A stretch of DNA of 64,000 bases, taken from positions 40,861 through 104,860 of IMG/VR virus record IMGVR_UViG_3300024507_000282; one strand, given 5' to 3'. Position 1 is the stretch's first letter. Every line of letters starts with the position of its first letter. Positions 3,391-64,000 of this stretch are shown here, piece by piece. Source of the stretch: a virus. Its lineage: Duplodnaviria; Heunggongvirae; Uroviricota; Caudoviricetes. Both the position numbers and the translations under genes were made by a program. The notes under the pieces were generated by a model. It was not told the DNA's origin. It made no database searches and saw nothing but the letters and a program-made list of their open reading frames with translations.

Positions 3391-3657
3391 TTATTTCTTT
3401 GCGCCAGTATTAACAAAAGCGTACATCTTTTCAGCGGCTTCTAAAACTTTCTCAAGTCCTGGAAACTCTGGCATATCTACTTTGCTAACAATCTGACCTG
3501 TCTTCTCATCACGAGTAGCAGTCATTTCCCAACCTTGAAACTTCACATGGAAGTCTTGGCTAACTAAGTCTTTAGCCATTGCTAGTATGTCAGTACGAAT
3601 TTCATAACCGTTTTTGTTGAATTTTACTTCTGGTAGTTTTGGTGTTAAATCACTCAT
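3391..3657 (-). CDS. hypothetical protein
   Basis: 88 aa ORF, AGGAGAAAATT-ATG initiation region. Confidence 0.5.
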   Translation of the reverse strand: MSDLTPKLPEVKFNKNGYEIRTDILAMAKDLVSQDFHVKFQGWEMTATRDEKTGQIVSKVDMPEFPGLEKVLEAAEKMYAFVNTGAKK

Positions 3658-3966: not shown

Positions 3967-4539
3967 TTAAAAAAGCAACGGAAATCTGAATATTTGAGCA
4001 AATTTCCTTTGTGTTTTGCCTAGATGGTCTATCTTAGCAAAATTGTCTTCCATGTACTCTTTCCATAGACTAACTGGAGTAGGGTTTGGAATTTCTATTT
4101 CACCGTGGCTGTCACTGTATTCTGTTTTAACAAGAACATTGTGTTTTCTAGCCAGGCTTTTAATTTTGTCATTGATACCTAAACAGACCATACAGCCGTG
4201 TTTGATATTACGATTTTGACAGTATTCAATAGCACGAGCCATTAGAGCATCGCCCATACCTTGACCTTGACATTCTTTAAAAACACTAAAGGCTAGTTCT
4301 GCTGGATCGTCTTCTAGACTGATATGTGCTACAGCAACAACTTCTAAGTTATCGTTTTCAATAGCAAATATTTTATGCTTATCCGAATTTAATTCCCAAC
4401 GATTAACTAATTCATTAATTGTTATATTTGGAATATGAAATCCAAATCGTAGATATCTAGTTTCGTCGTCGAGACTTAACAAGTGAGTTCTATATCTATA
4501 GAACTCGTGAGTCGGCAGTTTATAGATAGTGTAAGACAT
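3967..4539 (-). CDS. GNAT family N-acetyltransferase
   Basis: acetyl-CoA motif A QGQGMGDALM and surrounding fold-typical pattern. Confidence 0.6.
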   Translation of the reverse strand: MSYTIYKLPTHEFYRYRTHLLSLDDETRYLRFGFHIPNITINELVNRWELNSDKHKIFAIENDNLEVVAVAHISLEDDPAELAFSVFKECQGQGMGDALMARAIEYCQNRNIKHGCMVCLGINDKIKSLARKHNVLVKTEYSDSHGEIEIPNPTPVSLWKEYMEDNFAKIDHLGKTQRKFAQIFRFPLLF

Positions 4540-4801: not shown

Positions 4802-5077
4802 ATGAAAAAACGTACACGTTCGATTTTAGAAGAACTTAGTAGTTTAGGCAATAGTAGAAATACAGAACTTCTAATAGAAAATAGAGGTCAAAATATCATT
4901 GACAGCGCAGTTAATCTACTAAGTTTAGTGCGCCAGCAGTTCAATGAGGAAGAAAGTGCAGAACTAGAACGCCGTTTCCTTAATGCTATACGCACAGGTG
5001 ACCCACGCAAATTCCGCCGTGGAGTACAGAAAATTCAAGAACAGCGCAGAGCCGCTAAAAATAATCCTGAAAACTAA
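4802..5077 (+). CDS. hypothetical protein
   Basis: 91 aa ORF, charged/helical. Confidence 0.5.
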   Translation: MKKRTRSILEELSSLGNSRNTELLIENRGQNIIDSAVNLLSLVRQQFNEEESAELERRFLNAIRTGDPRKFRRGVQKIQEQRRAAKNNPEN

Positions 5078-5165
5078 CCGATAGACACCGGTTTTTCTCC
5101 TTTTGGCTAAATAAAATTACAAAAGTCCTATAGAGTAATAGGCATATGACACGAGGAGAAAAATT

Positions 5166-5504
5166 ATGTCAGCAACAACACGTTATAATGGTAGCACAAA
5201 ATTTGTGCAAGGTACTGTATACTCAGTATATCAATTAAAAGCATTCGTTATCGATGCTGGTGCAACACTAGCAGATCAAGATGGCGACGGCGCAGGTGAA
5301 GTAGATCAAGCTCTTGAAGCAGTAGTTCGTGAAGTACAACCTTTAATGTACTATTCAGCAACAGACAAGATCCATGTTATCGTTGATGGTCACGCTGTAG
5401 ATGCAACAACACTACAAGCACGTATCCAAGCAATGGGTACTGTTAACGGTTACGACCTAAGCGGTGCAACTGTTACTTTAGCATCTAGTTTAACAATCGC
5501 TTAA
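5166..5504 (+). CDS. hypothetical protein
   Basis: GAGGAGAAAAATT-ATG; followed by a strong terminator. Confidence 0.55.
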   Translation: MSATTRYNGSTKFVQGTVYSVYQLKAFVIDAGATLADQDGDGAGEVDQALEAVVREVQPLMYYSATDKIHVIVDGHAVDATTLQARIQAMGTVNGYDLSGATVTLASSLTIA

Positions 5505-19749: not shown

Positions 19750-20133
19750 ATGCACTTAGAAGGCCCGTGGCTTAGTACCACTGGCAAAAAGAAAGGCAAA
19801 CAAAAGTTTCGTTCTGCTGAACATGCCAAAAAGGCTAGAGAGTTAGACGAAAGTTGGAAGGCACTTCAAAAGAAGTGGGCCATCGAAGCCGAAGATAAAA
19901 AACGTAAGCGTGGACTAGCGGCACCGACGATGAATCCGGTAGTCAACAAGCCATTCGTTAGAGAAACACCAAAGATTGCTAGTTTACCATTTACTGGCGG
20001 TCCTTGTTTAAAAGCACCAGATAAAGTTTATACAGGCACAATGATCAAAGGCATCGGTACTATGCACAAGAGTAATGCAGTTCCAATTTTTAGTAATGAA
20101 GAAGCCGTAGAAATCTCCAAAATGAGAAGATAG
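19750..20133 (+). CDS. basic hypothetical protein
   Basis: ORF downstream of consensus promoter; ATG 19750 preferred over TTG 19732. Confidence 0.45.
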   Translation: MHLEGPWLSTTGKKKGKQKFRSAEHAKKARELDESWKALQKKWAIEAEDKKRKRGLAAPTMNPVVNKPFVRETPKIASLPFTGGPCLKAPDKVYTGTMIKGIGTMHKSNAVPIFSNEEAVEISKMRR

Positions 20134-35154: not shown

Positions 35155-36261
35155 ATGAAATTATGGATGGTAGTATTATGCGTTCCGTTGCTGAGTACAT
35201 CGTTGGCCTACGCCGCGATAGGCAAAGTAACGGAACAAATCAATACACCCCCGACTATCCAGAGACAGAATTCGACACTAACGGCGTCGAAAGGGACTGG
35301 AGTGGAAATGAACGATGCGATCAAGACCCAGCAGGGCAAGGTGGGGATAACATTTGAGGACGATACTAAAGTCCAAGTCAATGAAAATTCTAAACTTGTA
35401 ATTGATGATTTCGTTTATGATCCAAAAAGTAAGGCGGGTAAACTAGGTGCTAAGATTGCTCTTGGCACAGTTCGTTATGCGTCTGGACAGATTGCTAAGA
35501 ATTCGCCTCAGAATGTGGCCCTTTCTACTCCTAGTGCTACTGTTGCTGTACGCGGTACTGACTTTACTGCCACTGTAGACGAGCTAGGCGAAAGTACAAT
35601 TATTCTTTTACCTAGTTGTCCTAATGATAGACCAACACGCTCAGTTAGAGATATTGAAACTAACTGTAAGACTGGCAGTATTGAAGTTAGCAATGATGTA
35701 GGTACTGTAATACTAAATCAACCCTTCCAAGTAACTAAAGTTCAAAGTAGAACACAACCTCCTACACCGCCTAAAGTATTAAATCTAAGTGAAATGGCCA
35801 TTGGCAATATGTTAATTGTCAGTCCTCCGCGCGAAGTCAAACAAGCACAACAAGAACAACAGAGAACATTTAATGCTTTAGACTTTGACTTTTTAAAAGA
35901 GAAAGGTTTGGAGAATTATTTAGATATGCAGGCCAATATGATTTATGAAGATAAGTTAGCCAAAAACTTTTTGTCTAATGATTTCCTTGCTAACTTATTC
36001 GACATTGTGGGAAACATACTGGATCAAAAGTTTTTAGATCCTGTAGATCCTGTGCTACCAGACTATAAAAAGTCCAGTGGCATTATAGCCTACAAAGATG
36101 ATATGAGTGTTGAACTCTGTCGCGACAACGGTGCTGACATACAATGTGTTAAAACACCACTCACACAAAACTCAACAATATTACAAACACAGGGCAATTT
36201 AGAATTTAAGAACAGAATAAATCAGGGAGGTAATACTATTATTACCTTGATACAAAAATGA
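35155..36261 (+). CDS. secreted FecR-domain-like protein
   Basis: signal peptide; VAVRGTDFTATV block typical of FecR/DUF4880 beta-domain. Confidence 0.4.
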   Translation: MKLWMVVLCVPLLSTSLAYAAIGKVTEQINTPPTIQRQNSTLTASKGTGVEMNDAIKTQQGKVGITFEDDTKVQVNENSKLVIDDFVYDPKSKAGKLGAKIALGTVRYASGQIAKNSPQNVALSTPSATVAVRGTDFTATVDELGESTIILLPSCPNDRPTRSVRDIETNCKTGSIEVSNDVGTVILNQPFQVTKVQSRTQPPTPPKVLNLSEMAIGNMLIVSPPREVKQAQQEQQRTFNALDFDFLKEKGLENYLDMQANMIYEDKLAKNFLSNDFLANLFDIVGNILDQKFLDPVDPVLPDYKKSSGIIAYKDDMSVELCRDNGADIQCVKTPLTQNSTILQTQGNLEFKNRINQGGNTIITLIQK

Positions 36262-38651
36262 TAAAACGTTTATTACAGTTCCTTGTGTTTTTAACTGTGT
36301 GCATTAGCGCACATAGTCAGGCTGTGACTTATAATGCTATTGCTACTGCTTATGTTACTACTACAATTAGTCAACAAGTAGTGTTTGATAGTAATATGCA
36401 ACAAGGCGGTACATTTACAATGAGTGTACTAGCACACAACGGCGGCGGCCGTGCAGGACAAAGTGATACGGCTAACGTAAAGATACAGTTCTATAACAGC
36501 AGTGGTGGATTAATCACTAGCGTAAACTCAACTAACTCTGCTAACTTACCAAACCCAAATGCTGTGTGTGGTAATCCTTGTATTGATACTGCGGTACCTT
36601 GGACTACAGTAACTATCAGTGCAACGCTTACTGCGGCACAAGCAAGCCAAGTAGCCTATGCCACAGTCAGTATGTACGGTATTGATGGAAGTTACTGGGC
36701 AGGTGATTATGGTCCTTGGTATCGTGCTCCTACATTCCAACTTAATGGCGGCGGCAACTTATTGTATAACCCGGAGTTTGGGCCTTATAATAATATAACA
36801 GCACAAGGTTGGGTATCAAATCCAGGGTTCGGTGCTTGTCAAGGTGCATGGGGCGGATCAAATGCCTGTATCGTTAACAGCGATGGAGTGCCTGGTTCGA
36901 GTACAGTTGGCTTAGTTGCTAACGCTAACGGTGGCGGCCCTAGTGCTACTGGTGGTACTACTAGTGGTACTGCTGGTGGATATAATAACACAATGTCAGT
37001 GACCAATGCTGGCACGGGCGCAACTGCCGGTGCGGCTCCTGCTCCGACTCCTACAGTAACAGGAACTAGTGTAACTTATACAACTAGAACTGTGGTTAAT
37101 GGTAATACAACTACTGTTTATCGCACACCTGTAACTACAACAACTTACAGCGACGGAACTAGCACAAGTACAAATGGTACTGAAGCAGTATATCAAACTA
37201 AGGTTGCGTCTAACGTAGTAACTACAAAAATTGTAAACGGTGTTCTGACAACAACTACAACACCAATTAATACAGTTACTACAACCGGCGTTAATGGCAG
37301 CACCATAGAAGCAAACGGCACAGCAACAACTACAACACAAAACATACAGCAGGGATTAAACTATAAAGTCTACAAATTCGATCCTTACACTTATAACTGC
37401 GGTTGGTTAGGTTGTATTAAAAACTGGTTAGGGCCATATCGTGTACCTGATATGCCACCTGGTGGACAGCCTGTTAGTATTGGTACAACTAGTAACGGAG
37501 TTTATGTTCCGACTAACGGCAGTTTTCCAAATATGGACACTGGTACCTTAGTTAGATTCAACGGAACGATTACTGCTCCGACGACACAAAATTATCCTGC
37601 AGGTACTGTATATAGATTATACTTCTATAGCAACAGCGATGACGGATTTGTTATGAGTGTAAACGGACAAACAGTTATCAACGATAGATCTACATTCCAA
37701 CTTCAGAGTATAGGTGGCTATACAGCGTCTGGCTGGATAGACATAGTAGCAGGACAGACTTATAATTTTGAAGCATGGTACTGGAACGACACCGGCGGCT
37801 ATGGACTACGTTTTCAATGGGACTACGGTGCAGGCCGTATGAACGTACCTAACTCTGCATTTACTACAGGGTGGATTACTGAAACAAATACAATTGACAC
37901 TAGTGGATTTGTTTATTCTAACAGCGCAGTAGTTGACGTGTCGGGTACAACAGTTTTATTAGGACCAGTAGTTGAAGGTGGAACAATTACACAAACAAAT
38001 GCGCCTGGTGATCAAGTTATAGGTAGCGGTGGCTCATACGTTCCTCCAGCAGATATAGATGTTAAACAAACTAGAATTAATACTTGGAACAACGGTACAC
38101 AAAACTACAATAACGAATTGTACATCACACAAACATACGGTACTAACAATAATGTAACTATTACACAAAGTGGTACTAAGAACAAAATCGAATTTACCTT
38201 AGAAGGAAACAACAATATTGTTAATAATACTCAAACTGGCAGTAACTACTTAAAGCAAGAAGTGCCTGGGTGGGGCAATAACATAACTACTAATCAGTCA
38301 AATGCTAGTGGTTCAAATTATGCTGAAACTAAAATACAAGGAAATGGTAATACTGTAAATCATACACAAACCGGTAATCACATATTGTTCAGTAAAGTTA
38401 CAGGCGATATTAATACTGTAAACACTACACAGTCTGGCGGTGCTGGCCATTTCGCTGATATTACACTAACAGGAAATAACAACTCAGCACTAGTGACACA
38501 AACAGGAAATACTGCTAACAGAGCAGTTATTGATGTAACTAACGCAGGTGGCCCAGCCAGTGTTGACCTGCAACAAACAGGCGGCAAATCATTTAGCATC
38601 ATTCAAAGTTGTACAAATCCAGCGGGTTGTAGCACAGTTGTTCGCCAATAA
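36258..38651 (+). CDS. large secreted Thr-rich protein with PA14-like domain and C-terminal curlin-like repeats
   Basis: signal peptide; PA14-like block YFYSNSDDGFVMSVNGQTVIND...AWYWNDTGGYGLRFQW; C-terminal TQTGN/TQSGG repeats. Confidence 0.55.
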   Translation: MIKRLLQFLVFLTVCISAHSQAVTYNAIATAYVTTTISQQVVFDSNMQQGGTFTMSVLAHNGGGRAGQSDTANVKIQFYNSSGGLITSVNSTNSANLPNPNAVCGNPCIDTAVPWTTVTISATLTAAQASQVAYATVSMYGIDGSYWAGDYGPWYRAPTFQLNGGGNLLYNPEFGPYNNITAQGWVSNPGFGACQGAWGGSNACIVNSDGVPGSSTVGLVANANGGGPSATGGTTSGTAGGYNNTMSVTNAGTGATAGAAPAPTPTVTGTSVTYTTRTVVNGNTTTVYRTPVTTTTYSDGTSTSTNGTEAVYQTKVASNVVTTKIVNGVLTTTTTPINTVTTTGVNGSTIEANGTATTTTQNIQQGLNYKVYKFDPYTYNCGWLGCIKNWLGPYRVPDMPPGGQPVSIGTTSNGVYVPTNGSFPNMDTGTLVRFNGTITAPTTQNYPAGTVYRLYFYSNSDDGFVMSVNGQTVINDRSTFQLQSIGGYTASGWIDIVAGQTYNFEAWYWNDTGGYGLRFQWDYGAGRMNVPNSAFTTGWITETNTIDTSGFVYSNSAVVDVSGTTVLLGPVVEGGTITQTNAPGDQVIGSGGSYVPPADIDVKQTRINTWNNGTQNYNNELYITQTYGTNNNVTITQSGTKNKIEFTLEGNNNIVNNTQTGSNYLKQEVPGWGNNITTNQSNASGSNYAETKIQGNGNTVNHTQTGNHILFSKVTGDINTVNTTQSGGAGHFADITLTGNNNSALVTQTGNTANRAVIDVTNAGGPASVDLQQTGGKSFSIIQSCTNPAGCSTVVRQ

Positions 38652-47177: not shown

Positions 47178-47756
47178 ATGCAGTACAATGAATTTTTAGA
47201 TTGGGTAGATATTGACAAGTTTTCAGATGCTTGTAATAACATCTGTCATCAGACAGTATTAAATGAATCCACAAATCGAATGATGAAAGAAAAATTCATT
47301 ATTGCGGCAATGCAATTATCTAATCATAAAAAGAACATCGAGTGGACTGACGTTCGCGATTACGATATAAAATTTACCGATTGGACCAATGGCGACGTAG
47401 AAGTTAAAACTGGCAACGAACCTTTGTTCTACGCAAAGTCAGGAACTCCTAAAAAGACAATCAGTCTTAAATTAAAAAATGTTTACGAAAGTAAGAATCA
47501 AAGAACTACACTAGACAAAGTTTTTAATCATTTAATGATAGTCCAAATTAAAGGAACATTCGCTGTTGCCTTTGTAGATTACGCAACAGTTAAGGCTAAT
47601 CTAAAACAATTAACAGACGGCTTCTTAGTCAAACTAACACACGACCAAATAAATATTGTGTACAAAAAAGATATGAGAAATGAACCGACATCTTGGACAA
47701 TTGACTTAGATCCAAAACCTTGGATATTTGGCACATTAGCAAAGGCAGGCGTTTAA
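47178..47756 (+). CDS. hypothetical protein
   Basis: 192 aa ORF. Confidence 0.5.
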   Translation: MQYNEFLDWVDIDKFSDACNNICHQTVLNESTNRMMKEKFIIAAMQLSNHKKNIEWTDVRDYDIKFTDWTNGDVEVKTGNEPLFYAKSGTPKKTISLKLKNVYESKNQRTTLDKVFNHLMIVQIKGTFAVAFVDYATVKANLKQLTDGFLVKLTHDQINIVYKKDMRNEPTSWTIDLDPKPWIFGTLAKAGV

Positions 47757-47761
47757 AGAAT

Positions 47762-48118
47762 TGTTGTAATCCCTTCAAAGCGAAGGACTTCTGGACGCGG
47801 GTTCGACTCCCGCCAGGTCCACCATAAGGACATAAATTTACTTTGGTATTCATTGTAAATTTACTTTGGTATTGTGTTTTTATGATGGGCCTGCCATGGT
47901 TTCGACAGGGGTAGATAGTAGAGACGGCAACACGGTAGGCGATGACCGTAAATCAAGCAAAACTAGTAAATGCAAACGCATCTACATTTGAGTACTTCAC
48001 TGTTGAAGGCTTCACAGCCGACAATGGTCTAGTAGCAGCCTAAGAAACTGCAACTCCGGGGTAGGACTTACCTTGTAACCCAAACAACCAAAGGGCCTTC
48101 GGGCCCTTTTTTATTTTA
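47762..48118 (+). ncRNA. ssrA: two-piece (circularly permuted) tmRNA gene: acceptor piece first, coding piece second
   Basis: 47791-47824 T-arm GCGGG-TTCGACT-CCCGC + CAGGTCC-A-CCA; 47887 GGGCCTG pairs with it giving G3:U70; UUUCGACAGGGG tmRNA-like 5' element; tag ORF 47972-48043 ANASTFEYFTVEGFTADNGLVAA; terminator at end. Confidence 0.6.
48092..48117 (+). terminator. intrinsic terminator
   Basis: GGGCCttcgGGCCC + T6. Confidence 0.75.
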
Positions 48119-48127
48119 CCAAACACA

Positions 48128-48156
48128 TTGACAGATGCCCTGTCCGAGCCTATAAT
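48128..48156 (+). promoter_or_regulatory. perfect-consensus sigma70 promoter TTGACA-N17-TATAAT
   Basis: exact hexamers 37 nt before ATG 48193. Confidence 0.6.
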
Positions 48157-53824: not shown

Positions 53825-53898
53825 GCGCTTGAAGCTCAATGGATAGGCAGGGACTTCTAAACTCCCGATAGCAGGTTCGATTCCTGTCTAGCGCACCA
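53825..53898 (+). tRNA. isolated tRNA whose anticodon loop TTCTAAA gives anticodon CUA (amber-suppressor-like); identity uncertain
   Basis: acceptor GCGCTTG/CTAGCGC (one U.U), 3-bp D stem, AC stem GGGAC/CTCCC with C.C closing pair, T-arm GCAGG-TTCGATT-CCTGT, CCA encoded. Confidence 0.5.
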
Positions 53899-54440: not shown

Positions 54441-55199
54441 ATGATGTATAATCAAAAACTAGTAGCCTCTATCAAATCAAAAGGCAAAGTGCTCCGTGAA
54501 TTCAAGGACACAGTCTATATTCCGTTCGCTAGCGAATATAGTATCTTACTCAAAAATCTTAATACAACTCGTGCTGTCGTAAATGTGTTTATCGACGGAG
54601 AGAATGTCGTCCCTGGCGGATTGGTCATTGACCCGGGTCGGACTGTCGACTTAGAGCGTTGGATTAAAAACGGCAATCTCTCCGAAGGTAACAAGTTTAA
54701 GTTTATCGAACGCACAAGTGCAATTGAAGATGGTCCACGTGGTATCAAACTAGAAGACGGGTTAATCCGTGTTGAATATCAATTTGAAATTCCACGCCCT
54801 ATTCTAAACATTCCTACTTGGAGCTCAACTACTCTTACTAGGGGTATTAGTGGTAGTACAGGAGATTGGGCAAGCCCGATGGGTGCTACTTACTCTACCA
54901 ATGCCAGTCTTAACAGTATGAATGTAACAGCAAGTGCCGCAAGTTTTAAAAATGAAACCGGCATTACTGTTCCAGGTAGCAAGTCCACTCAGTCATTCCA
55001 ACATGTCACAGTTGGCGCACTAGAATCTACAGTACACAATATTGTGCTGAGACTAGTAGGCGACTTGGGAGATAACAAACCTGTTGAAAAGGCAGTGACA
55101 GTTAAAGCCAAACCAAAATGCGTAACTTGCGGCAAGCAGAATAAAGCTCACGCTAAGTTCTGTTCAGAATGCGGTACTGCATTAGAAATATTTGCGTAA
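54441..55199 (+). CDS. late protein with C-terminal zinc ribbon (structural candidate)
   Basis: AAAAGGAAG SD; late box upstream; CVTCGKQNKAHAKFCSECG at C-terminus. Confidence 0.5.
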   Translation: MMYNQKLVASIKSKGKVLREFKDTVYIPFASEYSILLKNLNTTRAVVNVFIDGENVVPGGLVIDPGRTVDLERWIKNGNLSEGNKFKFIERTSAIEDGPRGIKLEDGLIRVEYQFEIPRPILNIPTWSSTTLTRGISGSTGDWASPMGATYSTNASLNSMNVTASAASFKNETGITVPGSKSTQSFQHVTVGALESTVHNIVLRLVGDLGDNKPVEKAVTVKAKPKCVTCGKQNKAHAKFCSECGTALEIFA

Positions 55200-55280
55200 A
55201 TAAAAACACGGGGGGTGAAAGTCCCCCTTTAACTAAAGGAAACGAAAATGAAATAGATTGAATATGCTTGTAAGGACCTA

Positions 55281-55820
55281 GTGTTCCATTTTAACAAAAA
55301 ACACTTAGAAGATCAGACCATACCTATGTGGGTCTTAAAATTTCATGGGGAGACATTATATGTCAATCACGTAGACTGTACAGTTGCTTGGAGCACCAAG
55401 GAAACACCAGACAACAGTCATACAAAAGGTAGCATTAAAGTCAAGAACGTACTATTACGTGTCGACGATGAAAACAATGCTCAAATCTCCGAACTCACGT
55501 TAATAGATAAATTTAGACTACGTAACCAAAAGTTAGGTATTACTAGAATTATGTTTAGACCTCATAGCGAAATGCACAAAGCATTGTTGGCTAACGAATA
55601 CAAGCACGGTCCTATGAAATACATTCAAGGTAGATGTACTAGTACATTTATTATTTGTGATCTTTTGGATAGGAAACAAGTAACGTTCGCCCAACTCAAG
55701 TATGATGATTGGAGAGAAGTTAAACCAAACGAGTCGTACTACACACAATACGATGACACTAAAGGATCCAATTTACATGTCGACTATGGACACCCAAGTA
55801 CACCGTTTGAATATAGTTGA
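55281..55820 (+). CDS. hypothetical protein (GTG start; start uncertain)
   Basis: 179 aa ORF; ATG 55326 possible alternative. Confidence 0.4.
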   Translation: MFHFNKKHLEDQTIPMWVLKFHGETLYVNHVDCTVAWSTKETPDNSHTKGSIKVKNVLLRVDDENNAQISELTLIDKFRLRNQKLGITRIMFRPHSEMHKALLANEYKHGPMKYIQGRCTSTFIICDLLDRKQVTFAQLKYDDWREVKPNESYYTQYDDTKGSNLHVDYGHPSTPFEYS

Positions 55821-59021: not shown

Positions 59022-59096
59022 GTATCCCTAGTGTTAATGGCAGCACGACAGTCTCCAAAACTGCTAGTCGGGGTTCGAGTCCCTGGGGGTACGCCA
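59022..59096 (+). tRNA. tRNA-Trp (CCA)
   Basis: acceptor GTATCCC/GGGGTAC, D GTGT/GCAC, AC loop CTCCAAA, T-arm GTCGG-GGTTCGAGT-CCCTG region, CCA encoded. Confidence 0.75.
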
Positions 59097-59101
59097 ATAA
59101 T

Positions 59102-59179
59102 GCAACGGTGGCAGAGAGGCCCAATGCAACGGATTGCAAATCCGTAAAACCGTCAGTTCAAATCTGACCCGTTGCTCCA
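59102..59179 (+). tRNA. tRNA-Cys (GCA)
   Basis: acceptor GCAACGG/CCGTTGC, AC stem ACGGA/TCCGT loop TTGCAAA, T-arm GTCAG-TTCAAAT-CTGAC. Confidence 0.7.
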
Positions 59180-59187
59180 GGTTATAT

Positions 59188-59277
59188 CCCCCGTTAGCTC
59201 ATGGAGAGCAGGTCGGCTTATAACCGATTAATCTAGATAAGGTCCAGGATGAGGTTCGATTCCTCAACGGGGGACCA
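59188..59277 (+). tRNA. 90-nt tRNA with long variable region; anticodon loop CTTATAA (UAU, Ile2-like?)
   Basis: acceptor CCCCCGT/ACGGGGG, AC stem GTCGG/CCGAT, T-arm TGAGG-TTCGATT-CCTCA; D and variable arms atypical. Confidence 0.45.
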
Positions 59278-59290
59278 TAAGGAGAATATT

Positions 59291-59353
59291 ATGGCAGTAC
59301 TTGTAGTGTTAGTTATAATGTTCGTGTTGTATCAAGTTTTGAAAAAATATTAA
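59291..59353 (+). CDS. 20-aa hydrophobic micro-ORF inside tRNA array
   Basis: strong GGAG SD 6 nt upstream; MAVLVVLVIMFVLYQVLKKY. Confidence 0.25.
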   Translation: MAVLVVLVIMFVLYQVLKKY

Positions 59354-59448
59354 AAGGAGAGTAGCATGAAACGTGCTAAACGTTAGTGTCACTCTAGATC
59401 TCCCGTATGGTCTAGGGTTGGCACGTAAAATCAAATCAATACGTACAA

Positions 59449-59524
59449 CCCTGTTTAGCGTCAATGGTAGCGCACTTGACTCTTAATCAATGAGGTGTGA
59501 GTTCGAATCTCACAGCAGGGACCA
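59449..59524 (+). tRNA. tRNA-Lys (CTT)
   Basis: acceptor CCCTGTT/AGCAGGG (G.U), D GCGT/GCGC, AC loop CTCTTAA, T-arm GTGAG-TTCGAAT-CTCAC. Confidence 0.6.
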
Positions 59525-59527
59525 TAT

Positions 59528-59602
59528 GGGGGTATAACTTAATGGTTAAAGTAGCGGGCTTTTAACCCGTAAATCAGAGTTCGATTCTCTGTGCCCCTAC
59601 CA
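59528..59602 (+). tRNA. tRNA-Lys (TTT)
   Basis: acceptor GGGGGTA/TGCCCCT (two G.U), D ACTT/AAGT, AC GCGGG/CCCGT loop CTTTTAA, T-arm CAGAG-TTCGATT-CTCTG. Confidence 0.7.
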
Positions 59603-59784
59603 TATGAAAGCATTCTTAACTGGTCGCATAGCGTCAGTAGTAAGGACGGGCCACCATCTTATGACGAAAAAGGCATAAGAGTGCTTCCATATGGTAGTGT
59701 ATAAAAACAAACTAACCACAGCCAGGAACTATAGACTCTGGGTGCATAGCGCATTGTCGTTAGTTTCTTTTTGTATAGTATTAT

Positions 59785-59858
59785 TCCTGGATAGTTAAAT
59801 GGTATAACAATCGGCTGATAACCGGTCATTCTGAGTTCAATTCTCGGTCCAGGAACCA
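59785..59858 (+). tRNA. tRNA-Ile (GAT)
   Basis: acceptor TCCTGGA/TCCAGGA, D GTTA/TAAC, AC ATCGG/CCGGT loop CTGATAA, T-arm CTGAG-TTCAATT-CTCGG. Confidence 0.7.
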
Positions 59859-59864
59859 ATTTAC

Positions 59865-59939
59865 ATAGCGTTCGACTTCTGGGGAGGTCATCACCCTTTC
59901 AAGGTGACTAGGCGGGTTCGATCCCCGTACGCTATACCA
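59865..59939 (+). tRNA. tRNA-Glu (TTC)
   Basis: acceptor ATAGCGT/ACGCTAT, D GACT/GGTC, AC TCACC/GGTGA loop CTTTCAA, T-arm GCGGG-TTCGATC-CCCGT. Confidence 0.75.
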
Positions 59940-60024
59940 GAGCAAATAGAGATCTTGTGGGTTCATCCATGTTCTCTCAATGTTTGTTAGTTTCAATGGG
60001 TGGTATAGAAACTAACACCAATTT

Positions 60025-60099
60025 GGGGGCAGTAGTGGGCTACGGTCTTCCCTTGCAAGGAAGATGTCTAGAAGGATTCGATTTCCTCGGCCTCCACCA
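60025..60099 (+). tRNA. tRNA-Ala (TGC) with G3:U70
   Basis: acceptor GGGGGCA/GGCCTCC gives G3.U70; AC CTTCC/GGAAG loop CTTGCAA; T-loop TTCGATT; D-arm poorly formed. Confidence 0.55.
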
Positions 60100-60101
60100 A
60101 A

Positions 60102-60179
60102 TTTGCGACAATGGTGGGTTAACCGGCCTTGCCGGGGCATTCTAGATTACCGCGAAGGTTCGAGTCCTTCGGTCGCAAT
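60102..60179 (+). tRNA. tRNA-like element (T-arm and acceptor pairing but no clean anticodon arm); possible pseudo-tRNA, no CCA
   Basis: T-arm GAAGG-TTCGAGT-CCTTC; TGCGAC(A) pairs with GGTCGCA; middle region does not fold canonically. Confidence 0.3.
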
Positions 60180-60188
60180 TATTTTTAT

Positions 60189-60266
60189 CTCTGCGTAATG
60201 TCAATCTGGTAGACGGCCTGATCTGGAGTCAGGAGGCTGTACGTTCGAATCGTACCGTGGAGACCA
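60189..60266 (+). tRNA. tRNA, anticodon loop TCTGGAG (UGG, Pro-like; C33)
   Basis: acceptor CTCTGCG/CGTGGAG (two G.U), AC CCTGA/TCAGG, T-arm GTACG-TTCGAAT-CGTAC. Confidence 0.55.
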
Positions 60267-60271
60267 ATTTT

Positions 60272-60346
60272 GCCCTTGTATCCTTAGTGGTAGAGGTCCT
60301 GTTTTGTAAGCAGGGTGTGGTGGTTCGATTCCATCCTGGGGCACCA
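60272..60346 (+). tRNA. tRNA, anticodon loop TTTGTAA (UGU, Thr-like)
   Basis: acceptor GCCCTTG/CTGGGGC (one U.U), AC CCTGT/GCAGG, T-arm GGTGG-TTCGATT-CCATC. Confidence 0.6.
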
Positions 60347-60572
60347 AGTTTTGTAAGTGTCAGCAAGAGAATGTCACGCTATTGTAGGTAAGTTCGAACT
60401 ACCTTAATAGTAAAAGGGGACGGGTTCAACTCCCGGGGGATCGGAAGATCCCTGCAGATTGGTTGCTAACTGGACTAGTATCCCAAGTGACGTACCGAGT
60501 CCCAGCCGGCTTTATATACATGGGTGAATGGTTGCTATAACGATGGGGCAACTACTTACAAATTCAATCTGT
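60347..60572 (+). ncRNA. 226-bp tRNA-free spacer with two tRNA top-half-like minihelices and hairpins (candidate small stable RNAs)
   Basis: CTATT..GGTAAGTTCGAACTACC..AATAG minihelix; ACGGGTTCAACTCCCG T-arm-like element; GGGATCggaaGATCCC and GTTGC..GCAAC hairpins; no ORF. Confidence 0.3.
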
Positions 60573-60646
60573 TGGCCTATGGTGTAATGGTAACACAACT
60601 GACTTTGACTCAGTCGTTCCAGGTTCGAGTCCTGGTAGGCCTGCCA
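60573..60646 (+). tRNA. tRNA-Gln (TTG)
   Basis: acceptor TGGCCTA/TAGGCCT, D GTGT/ACAC, AC ACTGA/TCAGT loop CTTTGAC, T-arm CCAGG-TTCGAGT-CCTGG. Confidence 0.7.
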
Positions 60647-60653
60647 ATTTTAA

Positions 60654-60730
60654 CGGTCCTTAACTCAATGGATTAGAGTGCCAGTCTTCGAAACTGGAGG
60701 TTGGGAGTTCGAGTCTCTCAGGGCCGGCCA
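60654..60730 (+). tRNA. tRNA-Arg (TCG)
   Basis: acceptor CGGTCCT/AGGGCCG, D ACTC/GAGT, AC CCAGT/ACTGG loop CTTCGAA, T-arm GGGAG-TTCGAGT-CTCTC. Confidence 0.65.
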
Positions 60731-60732
60731 AT

Positions 60733-60807
60733 GGTGTTGCTAGTGTAGTGGTCCGCACGGCTGTCTGTGAAACAGTAAGGCAGGGTTCGATTCCCGGCTT
60801 CACCCCA
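60733..60807 (+). tRNA. tRNA-His (GTG), acceptor with two U.U mismatches
   Basis: D GTGT/GCAC, AC GCTGT/ACAGT loop CTGTGAA, T-arm CAGGG-TTCGATT-CCCGG, CCCCA 3' end; acceptor register ambiguous. Confidence 0.5.
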
Positions 60808-60813
60808 AATATC

Positions 60814-60889
60814 GCCGCTTTAGCAAATGTGGTCATTGCACCGGTTTGAAGCACCGAGGAACTTGGTTCGATCCCAAGGGGCGGCACCA
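60814..60889 (+). tRNA. tRNA-Phe (GAA)
   Basis: acceptor GCCGCTT/GGGCGGC (two G.U), D GCAA/TTGC, AC loop TTGAAGC, T-arm CTTGG-TTCGATC-CCAAG. Confidence 0.7.
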
Positions 60890-60896
60890 TAATTAT

Positions 60897-60973
60897 GCCC
60901 TTGTACGCTAATTGGTAATGCGAATGGATTTAAAATCCGTTGTGTGTAGGTTCGAATCCAACCAAGGGTACCA
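60897..60973 (+). tRNA. tRNA with anticodon UAA (Leu codon UUA) but short type-I variable arm
   Basis: acceptor GCCCTTG/CAAGGGT (G1.U72), AC ATGGA/TCCGT loop TTTAAAA, T-arm GTAGG-TTCGAAT-CCAAC, discriminator A. Confidence 0.55.
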
Positions 60974-60974
60974 T

Positions 60975-61046
60975 GCCTCTGCTGATGGAGCAGTGCCAGG
61001 TCTTCTAAACCAGGTTATAGTAGTTCGAATCTACTCAGAGGCGCCA
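60975..61046 (+). tRNA. tRNA-Arg (TCT), short (72 nt)
   Basis: acceptor GCCTCTG/CAGAGGC, AC CAGGT/ACCAG (one A.A) loop CTTCTAA, T-arm AGTAG-TTCGAAT-CTACT. Confidence 0.55.
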
Positions 61047-61048
61047 AG

Positions 61049-61122
61049 GCTCTTGTAGGTAAATGGTATACCAGTGTCTTGGTACGACACAATCGAAAGT
61101 TCGATTCTTTCCTTGAGCACCA
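61049..61122 (+). tRNA. tRNA-Thr (GGT), acceptor with two U.U mismatches
   Basis: acceptor GCTCTTG/CTTGAGC, D GGTA/TACC, AC GTGTC/GACAC loop TTGGTAC, T-arm GAAAG-TTCGATT-CTTTC. Confidence 0.65.
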
Positions 61123-61127
61123 GATAT

Positions 61128-61205
61128 ACCCCTGTGGACAAATTGGTAAAGTCGTCTCTCTCAAAAGGAGAAGTTCTCTCCGTTCGAATCGGAGCAGGGG
61201 TACCA
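61128..61205 (+). tRNA. tRNA with anticodon CAA (Leu codon UUG), short variable arm
   Basis: acceptor ACCCCTG/CAGGGGT, AC TCTCT/GGAGA loop CTCAAAA, T-arm CTCCG-TTCGAAT-CGGAG. Confidence 0.5.
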
Positions 61206-61251
61206 CATTTGTAGCAGATTCTATCTACAACGAATTATACAAGTAAAACAA

Positions 61252-61341
61252 CGAAGCGTGGCAGAGTCCGGTTTATTGCACCTGTCTTGAAAACAGACGA
61301 TCCGAAAGGGTCCGTGAGTTCGAATCTCACCGCTTCGGCCA
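61252..61341 (+). tRNA. tRNA-Ser (TGA), type II
   Basis: acceptor CGAAGCG/CGCTTCG, AC loop CTTGAAA, variable arm GATCCgaaaGGGTC, T-arm GTGAG-TTCGAAT-CTCAC. Confidence 0.65.
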
Positions 61342-61348
61342 AAAGGTG

Positions 61349-61377
61349 TTGACTTGTTTAACAGTTGATCGTATAAT
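61349..61377 (+). promoter_or_regulatory. sigma70-like promoter TTGACT-N17-TATAAT inside tRNA array
   Basis: consensus hexamers 9 nt before tRNA-Ser(GCT). Confidence 0.55.
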
Positions 61378-61385
61378 ACAAATAT

Positions 61386-61480
61386 AGTGAGTTGGCCGAG
61401 CTGGTCGAAGGCACCTTCCTGCTAAGAAGGCATTCCTGCAAAAACGGGGATCAAGGGTTCGAATCCCTTACTCACTGCCA
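61386..61480 (+). tRNA. tRNA-Ser (GCT), type II
   Basis: acceptor AGTGAGT/ACTCACT, AC CCTTC/GAAGG loop CTGCTAA, long variable arm, T-arm AAGGG-TTCGAAT-CCCTT. Confidence 0.65.
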
Positions 61481-61487
61481 AAATGTC

Positions 61488-61516
61488 TTGACTAGTTTCT
61501 AAAGTTCATATACAAT
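61488..61516 (+). promoter_or_regulatory. sigma70-like promoter TTGACT-N17-TACAAT inside tRNA array
   Basis: hexamers about 50 nt before tRNA-Tyr. Confidence 0.5.
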
Positions 61517-61567
61517 AGAGACTAGTTAAGAAATTAACCTAGTTCTTTAAAAATTTCAAGCAGATAT

Positions 61568-61653
61568 GGATGTGTAGGAAAATTGGTAACCCCAGTGGAC
61601 TGTAAATCCGCCGCCTTACGGCACTGCTGGTTCGACTCCAGCCGCATCCACCA
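61568..61653 (+). tRNA. tRNA-Tyr (GTA), type II
   Basis: acceptor GGATGTG/CGCATCC, AC GTGGA/TCCGC loop CTGTAAA, variable hairpin GCCttacGGC, T-arm GCTGG-TTCGACT-CCAGC. Confidence 0.7.
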
Positions 61654-62793
61654 TTAAGAAATAGCATTGACGGGTATCGTCTATGGACGCATAGACTTAT
61701 GAAGGATAAGGCCATCTTACCCTTCTGAGAAAACCGTGAACAATGGCTTATGAGGAGAATCGAACTCCACTCAGAAATACGTTTCATCCCATAGGGTGTA
61801 ATGTTATTTTTTAATGGTAAAAATTTAAGGGTAGTTTATTATCCTGTTGGCGGTTCGCCGTTGACGAAGAATAAGTTGAGTGATCAACCCAAAGGAGGTA
61901 AGCCTACGCAACTCCGCCAGTAATGGTTCATGTAAACAAGCCTGCTCACTACCGCGAGGTAGCGTTCACTGAGAAGACCGGTGGATGTAACAATGAAGCA
62001 AGTGTTAGGGAAAGAATGTGTATCGACTGGCCCGCAAGGGAACCAGGGTGCATGAAAAGTAACGGGTGGTGCTGACTTCCTAACAAAACCAACTTGCGAA
62101 TTGGTATGAGAAAGGGTAGTGTATTTGTCCAAGGGGTCGCTCCTAAGGGCTTGTATGCAATATTAATGGTTAGTGGACTGTTTTGATGCAGGACATTGAT
62201 CGTGAAATATCACTGAGTAGTCCGCGAGACAAAAGGTATGTGGTGAGTTGTATTCAGTAATCCAAAAGGTTATTGAGCAACAGAGGCAGCTCATCGCGGT
62301 AGGTTTGATATAGCGTAATGGTAACGCAATTGCCTCTTAAGCAATGGACTGTTGGTTCGATCCCAACTATCGATTATAAAATGCAAAGACTGCCTCGGTC
62401 ATATGTGAAAAGCATCTAATACTCGAGCCGCAAGGTAATCGAGTCAGACGTAGCTCGCAAGGTGAAATCTGTTTATGCTGGAAGTTTCGTAAGTGGTTAG
62501 CGCCGCTGAATGGCTCGCAAGGTCAACGGAGTAGATAGCGTAGAATAGCATATGGCGACAAGACTACTGCCTGTCTTTAAAAACGGCGATGCTGATAGTG
62601 GACATAGGTACAGTAATGGCTTATGTGGATGTCTAGAGAAGGTTGGCTCGCAAGGCTGACTATAATGCTAGAGGCACTATTGGCTAACGTATAATCTCAG
62701 CGTTAGCACTATTCTAAAACACATTAGCTCGAACCGAATAACGGCATTATAAATGCTTCTGGTAGTTGGTTAGTGTGTTTCAGAATAGAATTT
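61654..62793 (+). ncRNA. 1.1-kb ORF-poor spacer in the tRNA array carrying a repeated GCYCGCAAGG motif (5 copies) and many hairpins; candidate structured RNA(s)
   Basis: no + strand ORF over 60 aa; motif at 62029, 62425, 62451, 62511, 62643; one pseudo-tRNA inside. Confidence 0.35.
62297..62366 (+). pseudogene. tRNA-like pseudogene (D-arm, CTT anticodon arm, T-arm present; acceptor stem unpaired)
   Basis: D GCG/CGC, AC ATTGC/GCAAT loop CTCTTAA, T-arm GTTGG-TTCGATC-CCAAC; no 7-bp acceptor helix, no CCA. Confidence 0.35.
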
Positions 62794-62870
62794 GCACCGT
62801 TAGCTCAGTTGGTCAGAGCGCCGGCCTGTCACGTCGGAGGCCAGGGGTTCAAGTCCCCTACGGTGCGCCA
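62794..62870 (+). tRNA. tRNA-Asp (GTC)
   Basis: acceptor GCACCGT/ACGGTGC, D GCTC/GAGC, AC CCGGC/GTCGG loop CTGTCAC, T-arm AGGGG-TTCAAGT-CCCCT. Confidence 0.8.
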
Positions 62871-62884
62871 AGATAACTATTAAT

Positions 62885-63688
62885 ATGAAAACACTTTTAA
62901 TTTTAGGAGATTGCCAAAGTAATGGCAATAATTGTTTGGCTGGTGACATAGTCAACGACGATGCTCCGAGGACTTGGAGTCTACGTTTCCATAATGATTT
63001 TAGAAGTGTTTTTAAATGGTATCTAAAACATAGAAAAGAAAACAATGTTACAACACCTATGCCCAATGGCAATATGGAAAATGTTGTTTGGCATTATCTA
63101 TGGGAAGAAGAACAAAAAGCCGCATGGCCTAATTTCTTAAATGTTTCCAATGTAGTTAATATATCTATTAACGGTGGACATTTTATAGGTCATCACAAAA
63201 GATTAAAACAGTACCTAGCAGAGAATCCTAAACCGGATCATGTATTAGTTACAGATTACACGTTTAGTCATATAGCACACAGTTTCAAATATAACAATCA
63301 ACGATATGTATTTGAACGTGAAAATTATGTAGACGGAGAATGGAATCCAGATAGATATCCAATTGAAGTTCATAAAAAGCGATTAAACGGTATTGCTTTT
63401 CAAAAAAGTCAAAGCAAAGATTGGCATATTCGTAGACATAGAAATGGTTACAATATGTTAATTAAGTTTTTAGATTCTCAAAATATTAAATGGACGACTG
63501 TTAGGTTTGGAGATCCTAATCCTGACAACTCAGAAATTTTTAAAGAGTTTATGCACACTGGTATAGATTGTACTGAATACGGAAAACAGTATATGAGTGC
63601 TAATGGTGAGAATGCAAAAATTAAATTGTCTGTGCAAGAAAAAATTGCAACGACAATTCAGGAATACTTAAATAGTATTGTCAGTTAA
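62885..63688 (+). CDS. AT-rich hypothetical protein embedded in tRNA array (possible Cys-variant GDSL/SGNH-like fold)
   Basis: 267 aa ORF; N-terminal LILGDCQSNGNN resembles SGNH block I with Cys in place of Ser; lower GC than surroundings. Confidence 0.45.
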   Translation: MKTLLILGDCQSNGNNCLAGDIVNDDAPRTWSLRFHNDFRSVFKWYLKHRKENNVTTPMPNGNMENVVWHYLWEEEQKAAWPNFLNVSNVVNISINGGHFIGHHKRLKQYLAENPKPDHVLVTDYTFSHIAHSFKYNNQRYVFERENYVDGEWNPDRYPIEVHKKRLNGIAFQKSQSKDWHIRRHRNGYNMLIKFLDSQNIKWTTVRFGDPNPDNSEIFKEFMHTGIDCTEYGKQYMSANGENAKIKLSVQEKIATTIQEYLNSIVS

Positions 63689-63689
63689 T

Positions 63690-63773
63690 GCCCTGGTGGT
63701 GGAATGGTAGACACGCTGGTCTTAGAAGCCAGTGGCGAGAGCCGTGAGAGTTCGAGTCTCTCCTGGGGCACCA
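63690..63773 (+). tRNA. tRNA-Leu (TAG), type II
   Basis: acceptor GCCCTGG/CTGGGGC, AC CTGGT/GCCAG loop CTTAGAA, variable hairpin GGCgagaGCC, T-arm GAGAG-TTCGAGT-CTCTC. Confidence 0.7.
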
Positions 63774-63779
63774 AAATAT

Positions 63780-63855
63780 GCGGGTGAAGTGTTTGTGGTT
63801 ACACGTCAGTCTTCCAAACTGAAATAGACGAGTTCAACTCTCGCCTCCCGCTCCA
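63780..63855 (+). tRNA. tRNA-Gly (TCC)
   Basis: acceptor GCGGGTG/CTCCCGC (one U.U), D GTGT/ACAC, AC TCAGT/ACTGA loop CTTCCAA, T-loop TTCAACT. Confidence 0.7.
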
Positions 63856-63860
63856 TCATT

Positions 63861-63937
<77 letters not shown>

Positions 63938-63947
63938 ATGTTAGTTT

Positions 63948-64000
63948 GCCTGGTTAGCTCAGTGGTAGAGCGTCTCGTTTACACCGAGAGGGTCGGCAGT
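63948..64000 (+). tRNA. tRNA-Val (TAC), 3' end beyond window
   Basis: acceptor GCCTGGT, D GCTC-AGTGGTA-GAGC, AC TCTCG/CGAGA loop TTTACAC. Confidence 0.6.

Follow-up and report, generated by a model that had tools for sequence, protein, structure and literature searches.

A phage tRNA with anticodon CUA and a linked gene with one leader TAG: a probable amber suppressor dedicated to a single target

Introduction

Genome-wide recoding in phages has been described by Borges et al. (2021/2022), who found phage suppressor tRNAs to be strongly associated with TAG recoding and a "code change module" of tRNA, aminoacyl-tRNA synthetase (aaRS) and release factor (RF) beside the recoded lysis genes that it controls, the regulation of translation by suppression being proposed. 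CUA suppressors were also reported in the paper on phage XacN1, where no target genes were identified and only the C-terminal read-through of 18 amber stops was tested, and in that on RsoM2USA, likewise with no target; for Atu_ph07 one suppressor tRNA is reported, its anticodon being UCA and its target not known (PMC6102473). The present study concerns a tRNA with anticodon CUA and a neighbouring gene, here named gene X, in a stretch of 64,000 nucleotides from a virus of the Caudoviricetes (IMG/VR record IMGVR_UViG_3300024507_000282, positions 40,861 to 104,860), referred to below as the window. Related loci are designated by L numbers.

At a probability of roughly 0.8, we consider this tRNA to be a functional amber suppressor and the dedicated decoder of the single UAG present in the leader of gene X, both forming a two-part translational switch. 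In the literature searched, no pairing of a suppressor tRNA with one leader-gated gene was described. The features on which this reading rests are the following:

53825-53898, + strand: tRNA with anticodon CUA, 74 nt, very probably an amber suppressor (ARAGORN; Rfam; family covariance model; covariation over 44 copies)
55236-55241, + strand: Shine-Dalgarno-like AAGGAA, 6 nt before the ATG at 55248 (sequence; equivalent element in related loci)
55248-55820, + strand: gene X, the putative target of the tRNA (tblastn homology; sequence; 49/49 related loci; coding-type evolution; AlphaFold (AF2) model)
55254-55256, + strand: in-frame TAG at codon 3 of gene X, in TAG-A context (TAG in 43/43 distinct sequences)

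Gene X and its linkage to the tRNA

Two loci found by pattern searches, L001 and L002, possess the CUA tRNA, a good Shine-Dalgarno sequence (SD) and the start ATG ACA CAA AAA TAG ATT GAA..., whose frame stays open for about 190 codons. When their protein was used in a tblastn search, a homologue with 65% identity was located in the window at 55257-55817, starting directly after an in-frame TAG. Gene X is composed of the ATG at 55248, AAA, the TAG at 55254-55256, 187 sense codons (IEYACKDLVFHFNKKHLEDQTIPMW...) and the TGA at 55818-55820, the start reading SD-ATG-AAA-TAG-ATT-GAA, and it encodes an orphan two-domain protein of 190 amino acids about 1.35 kb downstream of the CUA tRNA. The earlier note on this DNA had seen no TAG-interrupted conserved gene here, which was wrong considering gene X, and the absence of any in-frame TAG, which it had named as a ground for abandoning the suppressor, is contradicted by this conserved one. 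A similar arrangement is present in L052 (MSK*IEYACKD).

Every IMG/VR locus encoding a relative of gene X was fetched (n=49, 54-83% identity, contigs up to 364 kb), and the in-frame TAG was present in all 49, behind an SD, an ATG and one to ten variable codons. The leaders differ in both length and sequence (MK, MA, MS, MSK, MTQ, MSQQ, MIDLNPIAI), and the stop that closes them is TAG in all 43 distinct sequences, never TAA or TGA. Further TAG-gated copies were found in L001 and L002, in L134 and L135 (NCBI/ENA assemblies), in L143-L146 (bins of metagenome-assembled genomes, MAGs) and, at 48% identity, in L141. In addition, the cultured Rhizobium phage RHph_I1_18 has an unannotated gated gene of 82 codons comprising the N-domain only (MSEFM*NESCREVIFHFNKAHL...), which ends 12 nt before an annotated 'tRNA-Pyl(cta)'. 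About 60 gated copies are thus available, and every gate is TAG.

Regarding the linkage, a CUA tRNA of the same family lies in the flanks of 47 of the 49 IMG/VR loci, 44 being detected by ARAGORN and three (L101, L109, L128) by the covariance model described below. In the two others gene X is less than 190 nt from the contig end, so all 47 assessable loci are positive, within 10 kb. With one exception the tRNA precedes gene X on the same strand, the two being separated by between about 40 nt (L001, L002) and 8.5 kb. The tRNA and gene X are co-inherited, and gene X provides what an amber suppressor calls for, a conserved coding sequence whose in-frame UAG has to be decoded.

As a separate observation, L145 has at 322-398 a tRNA-like gene whose anticodon loop of 8 nt (GCCCUAAC) contains CUA, two tRNAs upstream of its gated gene X; expanded anticodon loops are typical of frameshift suppressors.

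Evidence for translation across the TAG

The codons that follow the TAG behave as coding sequence. From +1 to +9 the encoded amino acids are conserved (I 43/43, E 43/43, C 41/43 and D 41/43) with synonymous changes at the third position, and the neighbouring two-fold codons vary freely among the 43 sequences (GAT 20 and GAC 21; AAG 28 and AAA 11). To judge from this pattern of substitution, the codons after the gene X TAG are translated. Nearly all gated copies examined have an A directly 3' of the TAG, L141 alone having G, and an A after UAG is a favourable context for amber suppression in E. coli.

The same arrangement could be read as a mini upstream open reading frame (uORF), in which ATG, one to ten codons and TAG are followed by reinitiation at ATT or at a downstream GTG or ATG, the tRNA being linked for another reason. 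ATT, a weak start codon, follows the TAG in 42 of the 43 distinct sequences, a GTG stands 8-9 codons downstream in most members, and distant ungated homologues keep the tRNA, so that linkage need not reflect decoding. However, a mere stop would be expected to drift to the preferred TAA, which is one transition away, and TAG is kept in all of the approximately 60 gated genes. The codon after the TAG is usually ATT, yet in some members it is ATA, ATC, AAC, AAG or GTT, the last three not being start codons, and this variation makes reinitiation at a conserved start untenable. Moreover, in 8 of the 43 sequences the next ATG, GTG or TTG comes only 24 codons downstream, within residues that are invariant in the protein family, and the codons before it are conserved as protein. 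The uORF is also at odds with a second gene family, described below, where the identity of the leader stop tracks the suppressor anticodon (TAG with CUA, TGA with UCA). It is therefore held improbable, and decoding of the TAG by the linked tRNA is preferred.

Specificity of the gate for gene X

The scans for other targets covered 42 non-redundant loci, 766 kb in total, comprising the 64-kb window and about 700 kb of relatives' loci. When SD-ATG was followed by at most 12 codons, a stop and at least 80 open codons, 42 cases were counted for TAG, 8 for TGA and 1 for TAA; 41 of the 42 TAG gates were gene X, and the remaining one has TAA in its L110 counterpart. Frames split by one stop with at least 70 codons on each side numbered 34 for TAG, 32 for TGA and 89 for TAA, matching the trinucleotide counts, and the larger TAG-split cases were antisense frames of real genes, adjacent genes in the same frame or compositionally biased off-frames. 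The gate is thus specific to gene X, nothing points to a general recoding, and no target other than gene X could be detected in the 64-kb window or in the neighbourhood of the tRNA.

These counts bear directly on a reassignment of TAG over the genome or in late genes, as in crAss-like and Lak phages, of which gene X would be the one recoded gene visible; the earlier note had likewise thought of late-gene read-through or a stop-reassigned lifestyle. The association of phage suppressors with recoding reported by Borges et al. speaks for it, some gene callers apply a TAG=Gln table to gene X contigs, and TAG is the rarest stop (about 64% TAA, 30% TGA and 6% TAG, in agreement with the earlier statement that most genes end in TAA). 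Most of the genome also lies outside the scans. On the other hand, the window is dense under the standard code, its + strand open reading frames (ORFs) of at least 100 amino acids covering about 77%, and TAG-split frames are in no excess over TGA-split ones, each candidate examined being an artefact, an antisense frame or an adjacent pair. The structural and replication genes of the window have no in-frame TAG, as seen for the tail spike, RNR, RIIA and ClpP genes. Three credible + strand genes end in TAG, with another stop within 0-4 codons of each; the same-frame ORF pairs after the TAGs at 20131 and 44951 were considered as split genes and rejected, these TAGs being genuine terminators. No enrichment of backup stops was found after genuine TAG terminators. 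The many in-frame TAGs of a code-15 phage, with gene density restored when TAG is read as sense, were found neither in the window nor in the approximately 700 kb of relatives, and we give such a reassignment little credence, about as little as the uORF, compared to a tRNA dedicated to gene X.

Structure, family and identity of the tRNA

The location given in the earlier note, 53825-53898 with anticodon CUA, is reproduced exactly by ARAGORN (cta) and by Rfam. The anticodon C34 U35 A36 is at 53857-53859, CTA being position 33 of the ARAGORN call, and this tRNA is one of 27 RNA genes that ARAGORN lists in the window. Its score against RF00005 is 38.4 bits (gathering score 29), among the lowest of the tRNAs in the window. 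As read from the sequence, the 7-bp acceptor stem has a U6.U67 mismatch, begins with G1-C72/C2-G71/G3-C70 and is followed by the discriminator A73 and an encoded CCA. Positions 8 and 9 are A8 A9, A8 replacing U8; the D arm has a 3-bp stem (G10-C, C11-G, U12.G) with G18G19 in its loop; the anticodon arm is GGGAC/UUCUAAA/CUCCC, with a C31.C39 closing mismatch and a 7-nt loop; the variable loop has 4 nt, and the T arm is GCAGG-TTCGATT-CCTGT. The anticodon arm, the C.C closing pair, the 3-bp D stem and the encoded CCA had all been correctly described before.

Folding of the single sequence gave no cloverleaf (z = -0.89, not above shuffles), and because this fold is uninformative, the reality of the tRNA rests on comparative evidence. 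A family covariance model was built on 37 copies of the CUA tRNA. With it, 44 family copies score 69-92 bits, the window copy reaching 75.3, compared to at most 58 bits for non-family tRNAs in the gene-X loci; the best non-family score, 65.4 bits, belongs to a tRNA with anticodon CAT in L072-L078. In the alignment of the 44 copies, 93.1% of the cells are paired and double-sided changes occur in 15 of the 20 pairs, and the covariation score was reached by 0 of 500 shuffles (0.50 observed vs 0.06-0.13 for slid controls). The loop Y32-U33-C34-U35-A36-A37-M38, with 7 nt, U33, the anticodon C34-U35-A36 and a purine at 37 as in amber suppressors, is kept in 44/44 copies; G1-C72, C2-G71 and G3-C70 are invariant, A73 is present in nearly all copies and the variable loop has 4-6 nt. 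With its four-armed cloverleaf and covariation, the tRNA is real and under selection. Considering the retained loop and the invariant in-frame TAG linked to it, the amber-suppressor character noticed earlier very probably belongs to a working tRNA.

A decaying or non-functional gene had been considered in the earlier note. The low Rfam score, U6.U67, A8, C31.C39, the 3-bp D stem and the lack of a cloverleaf in the single-sequence fold would agree with a pseudogene. Nevertheless, the 31:39 position is unpaired in 36 of the 43 distinct copies and the 3-bp D stem is likewise a family trait, so that both peculiarities are conserved rather than decayed; only U6.U67 is restricted to the window copy, the other copies having A-U, G-C or U-A there. 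The stems covary, the window copy, at 75 bits, falls inside the family range, and the linked gene X is intact with all family-invariant residues, which would be unexpected if its sole decoder were dead. A pseudogene is thus quite improbable, a little more so than the uORF or a general reassignment. The 9-nt loop with anticodon UCU (Arg), offered as an alternative fold, is not supported either, as all 44 copies keep the 7-nt CUA loop and the linked gene carries an invariant TAG. An origin from tRNA-Arg(UCU) by deletion of one loop nucleotide was also weighed, and the scores give it no support.

In relation to the amino acid, a short variable loop rules out bacterial tRNAs of Ser, Leu and Tyr type, and such an identity is therefore excluded for the CUA family. 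When the anticodon loop was masked, none of 205 sense tRNAs encoded by the same phages was a close match to the family, tRNA-Gln being among the least similar isotypes, and likeness to sense tRNAs thus points to no particular amino acid. Glutamine, suggested by the 'Q' of database proteins at the TAG position, was rejected, since the DNA is TAG and the Q comes from the gene callers' table. A promoter scan around the tRNA and gene X gave nothing above shuffle expectation.

The combination of a CUA anticodon with an in-frame UAG in a specific gene resembles the arrangement of tRNA-Pyl and the methylamine methyltransferases, and a pyrrolysine tRNA or another system for a non-canonical amino acid has to be weighed. 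The hallmarks of tRNA-Pyl are an anticodon stem of 6 bp, a 3-nt variable loop, a tiny D loop, the lack of G18G19 and T-Psi-C, and the presence of pylS/pylBCD. The present family has instead GG in the D loop, TTCGA in the T loop, a variable loop of 4-6 nt and an anticodon stem of at most 5 bp, and the tRNA at 53825-53898 does not belong to the tRNA-Pyl class. Genes like PylS/PylBCD were not among the annotated neighbours (Pfam, NCBIfam and PHROG scans), and the TAG occupies no catalytic position: the leader in which it stands is variable, and the conserved domain starts 9-11 codons after it. This is the least probable of the explanations weighed and hardly credible. The label 'Pyl' is the name that ARAGORN automatically gives to CTA, and it recurs in the GenBank records of RHph_I1_18 and in the paper on AP-J-162.

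An independent parallel in PTH2 genes

A second, apparently gated gene is present in two cultured phages. In the Sinorhizobium phage Phosso (L138, PV764938.1), the tRNA at 379-454, annotated 'Undet', is a CUA suppressor, and the gene of the peptidyl-tRNA hydrolase PTH2 (4887-5381) begins with AGGAG-N8-ATG AAG TAT TAG GTT GAA..., with no other in-frame start for 51 codons; it is two genes upstream of an X-like protein. In the Agrobacterium phage Atu_ph07 (L137, MF403008.1), the orthologue at about 4932-5381 reads ATG ATT GGC GAA CAC TTT TGA ATT AAT.... In both phages, the annotated start cuts the first 10 residues off the Pfam PTH2 match. As TAG accompanies CUA in Phosso and TGA accompanies UCA in Atu_ph07, the gate codon covaries with the suppressor anticodon.

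We propose the leader-gated PTH2 gene as the suppressor target in Phosso and Atu_ph07. The pattern of SD-ATG, a short variable leader, a stop matching a co-encoded suppressor and a conserved ORF is found in gene X and again in PTH2, with TAG and tRNA-CUA in Phosso and TGA and tRNA-UCA in Atu_ph07. These two cases support the view that gating by a leader stop and a phage suppressor tRNA is a general design.

Protein X and its homologues

A large protein database contains 1,476 homologues of gene X, none of them named and none with a Pfam domain; a PDB sequence search, NCBIfam and PADLOC were empty when queried with gene X. AF2 produced a confident two-domain model, with a predicted local distance difference test (pLDDT) score of 85.8 for the whole protein and 92.7 for the N-domain alone: the N-domain (1-80) is predicted to be all-beta and the C-domain alpha/beta, ferredoxin-like. 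An exhaustive search with representatives revealed three architectures, namely full length, N-domain only, and the N-domain at the C-terminus of a 175-aa protein (Atu_ph07, Phosso).

Public gene calls are inconsistent (P0001-P0120, L134, L135): the TAG is either read as Gln or the gene is cut to a downstream GTG or ATG (MFHFNKK..., MWVLKFHG...), and database entries often show M-x-Q-IEYACKD where the DNA has TAG. The gene X contigs L143-L147 were binned in MAGs of Bifidobacterium, Flavobacteriaceae, Nanopelagicales, Phycisphaerales and Methanobacterium, and are most likely phage contigs mis-binned into cellular genomes. A scan of bacterial genomes for gene X returned only MAG bins from five unrelated phyla and gave no host clue.

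Distant homologues without the gate are present in L139, L140 and L147. The ungated gene of L140 (MTVELACRD...) is at 2658-3203, and a CUA tRNA at 2430-2504 stands 154 nt upstream; that of L147 (MLDYNGKNEIIFHF...) is at about 3977-4228, with a CUA tRNA at 3547-3621, 454 nt upstream. As both are ungated and still keep the CUA tRNA, the linkage is not explained by decoding alone, which suggests a functional tie of protein X and the tRNA beyond decoding. It is thus probable that protein X also acts on the suppressor tRNA or together with it, or on UAG decoding, in which case the leader UAG would be a feedback sensor.

Proposed mechanism

According to the reading preferred here, ribosomes would start at the SD-ATG of gene X and, without the suppressor, would terminate after a di- to deca-peptide, protein X not being made. 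Charged and mature tRNA(CUA) would compete with release factor 1 at the UAG, and read-through would yield the 190-aa protein, the tRNA acting as the key and the leader UAG as the lock. Both would move as a unit among the hypervariable regions of a large group of jumbo and T4-like phages from freshwater and soil, whose code is otherwise the standard one. Read-through at the gene X UAG, charging by a host synthetase and a purpose in timing, dosage or feedback are what we infer from the comparative data.

A further step, which we advance tentatively and judge unlikely in its full form, is that the tRNA and protein X constitute a self-contained UAG-decoding circuit, a mobile 'read-through stat'. 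Protein X, through its conserved all-beta N-domain with or without the ferredoxin-like C-domain, would act on the suppressor tRNA, release factor 1 or the ribosome, and the leader UAG would make X synthesis report on the efficiency of suppression and feed back to it, giving standard-code phages a controlled level of amber suppression. Support comes from the tRNA that stays beside the ungated L140 and L147 genes, from the X-like domain of Phosso and Atu_ph07 lying two genes from a PTH2 gated by a suppressor-matching stop, and from the likeness of the gene X leaders to minigenes of two to four codons, a kind of sequence known to cause peptidyl-tRNA drop-off.

Genomic setting and neighbouring elements

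The window belongs to a large lytic phage encoding RIIA, NrdA, a tail spike and ClpP, with a permuted transfer-messenger RNA (tmRNA), a GOLLD RNA and an array of at least 24 tRNAs. The CUA tRNA was said in the earlier note to stand far from the main array, and it is indeed apart, about 5 kb upstream of it (59022-64000). A megablast of the region against cultured phages gave no match at the DNA level, and at the protein level the jumbo Xanthomonas phage XacN1 comes closest, with about 30% identity.

A negative set was assembled from 80 loci (806 kb) that are syntenic through the upstream SPFH/Band-7 gene (66-95% amino acid identity). Among them, the CUA tRNA is present only in L052 (364-kb contig), and gene X only there too; in the other loci DNA homology ends at the SPFH stop codon, which places the tRNA in a hypervariable segment. 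The same tRNA occurs in other contexts in L001, L002 and L084, as found by pattern searches. Thus, the gene of this tRNA is mobile and selected rather than a fixed part of the locus.

Two elements lie between the tRNA and gene X:

54441-55199, + strand: gene for 252 amino acids, the protein ending in a zinc ribbon (Pfam Zn_Ribbon_1, residues 226-248)
55210-55227, + strand: hairpin GGGGGG-TGAAAGT-CCCCC, between the zinc-ribbon gene and the SD of gene X (sequence)

The zinc-ribbon gene (Z) accompanies the pair, in the same orientation, in 30 of 41 gene-X loci, in the orders tZX (18), tXZ (8), ZtX (3) and XtZ (1), where t is the tRNA and X is gene X, and its product may be a third component of the module. 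The hairpin is also present in L090, L092, L099 and L112; just three T's follow it on the + strand, a terminator-like call being obtained on the minus strand only, and it may serve in termination, in RNA processing or in regulation.

Other RNA genes of the window show features of their own. The GOLLD RNA at 62240-62703 (Rfam 207 bits, full length) is inside the tRNA array, and a tRNA-Lys(CTT) at 62303-62376 is embedded in it, without an encoded CCA, unlike almost all other tRNAs of the window. The tmRNA at 47671-48134 is of the two-piece (permuted) betaproteobacterial type and has an unusually long tag peptide (ANASTFEYFTVEGFTADNGLVAA), the tags of relatives having 10 residues (e.g., ANDESYALAA). 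The tRNA-Ile(TAT) call at 59188-59277 has 90 nt, far above the length of a class I tRNA, and may contain an insertion or an intron in or after the anticodon arm.

Significance

Suppressor tRNAs have been described in the standard-code jumbo phages XacN1, RsoM2USA, Atu_ph07 and AP-J-162, each time with an express remark that a target was not to be found. The pair described here supplies a target class for them, namely genes with one stop in the first few codons that are tightly linked to the tRNA. Such genes escape annotation because they are truncated, dropped (as in RHph_I1_18) or lead the whole contig to be switched to a TAG=Gln table, and more than 1,400 database proteins are hereby flagged as having mis-called N-termini. 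A natural switch of one tRNA and one gene is suggested, similar in design to the amber suppression used by synthetic biologists, and it is a plausible intermediate toward full stop-codon recoding. It is also directly testable in three cultured phage-host systems.

Comparison with known systems

In the recoded phages (crAss-like, Lak and Jade/Agate; Ivanova 2014; Yutin 2021; Borges), a tRNA(CUA) likewise decodes UAG within a host of standard code. Those phages, however, have tens to hundreds of in-frame stops in late, structural and lysis genes and are effectively of code 15 or code 4, whereas here a standard-code genome has one orphan gene with one TAG in its first 2-11 codons and a tightly linked tRNA. 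The annotated neighbours include neither an aaRS nor an RF gene, and the hosts and environments (freshwater, soil, rhizobia) differ from those of the recoded phages.

XacN1, RsoM2USA and Atu_ph07 are more similar in their overall organization, being likewise jumbo myophages of standard code that encode many tRNAs, one or two suppressors among them. The layout of XacN1 follows that of the window: Band7/SPFH, two tRNA-Sup, tmRNA, GOLLD and the tRNA array. Its permuted tmRNA and GOLLD RNA are in an unannotated stretch of 2.5 kb that follows the two tRNA-Sup genes, the intervals concerned in this region being 36047-36205, 37177-37596 and 38570-38983 of L142 (AP018399.1). The XacN1 suppressors share the anticodon arm of the family (AGAGC-CUCUAAA-ACUC) but not its acceptor stem; nothing credible was seen as a gated gene next to them, the next gene having no TAG, and gene X is absent from XacN1 and RsoM2USA.

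The pyrrolysine system (mtmB/mtbB/mttB) also links a CUA tRNA to genes with a single in-frame UAG, but there the UAG stands at an active-site residue, while that of gene X is in a variable leader and is accompanied by a tRNA of different architecture. Finally, in prfB, the gene of release factor 2 (RF2), an early in-frame UGA likewise ties expression to the capacity for termination or decoding, and the logic would be the same if protein X feeds back. The escape from the stop is nevertheless different: prfB senses RF2 and escapes by +1 frameshifting, whereas gene X has no frameshift site and would depend on a dedicated suppressor tRNA, with feedback as a hypothesis.
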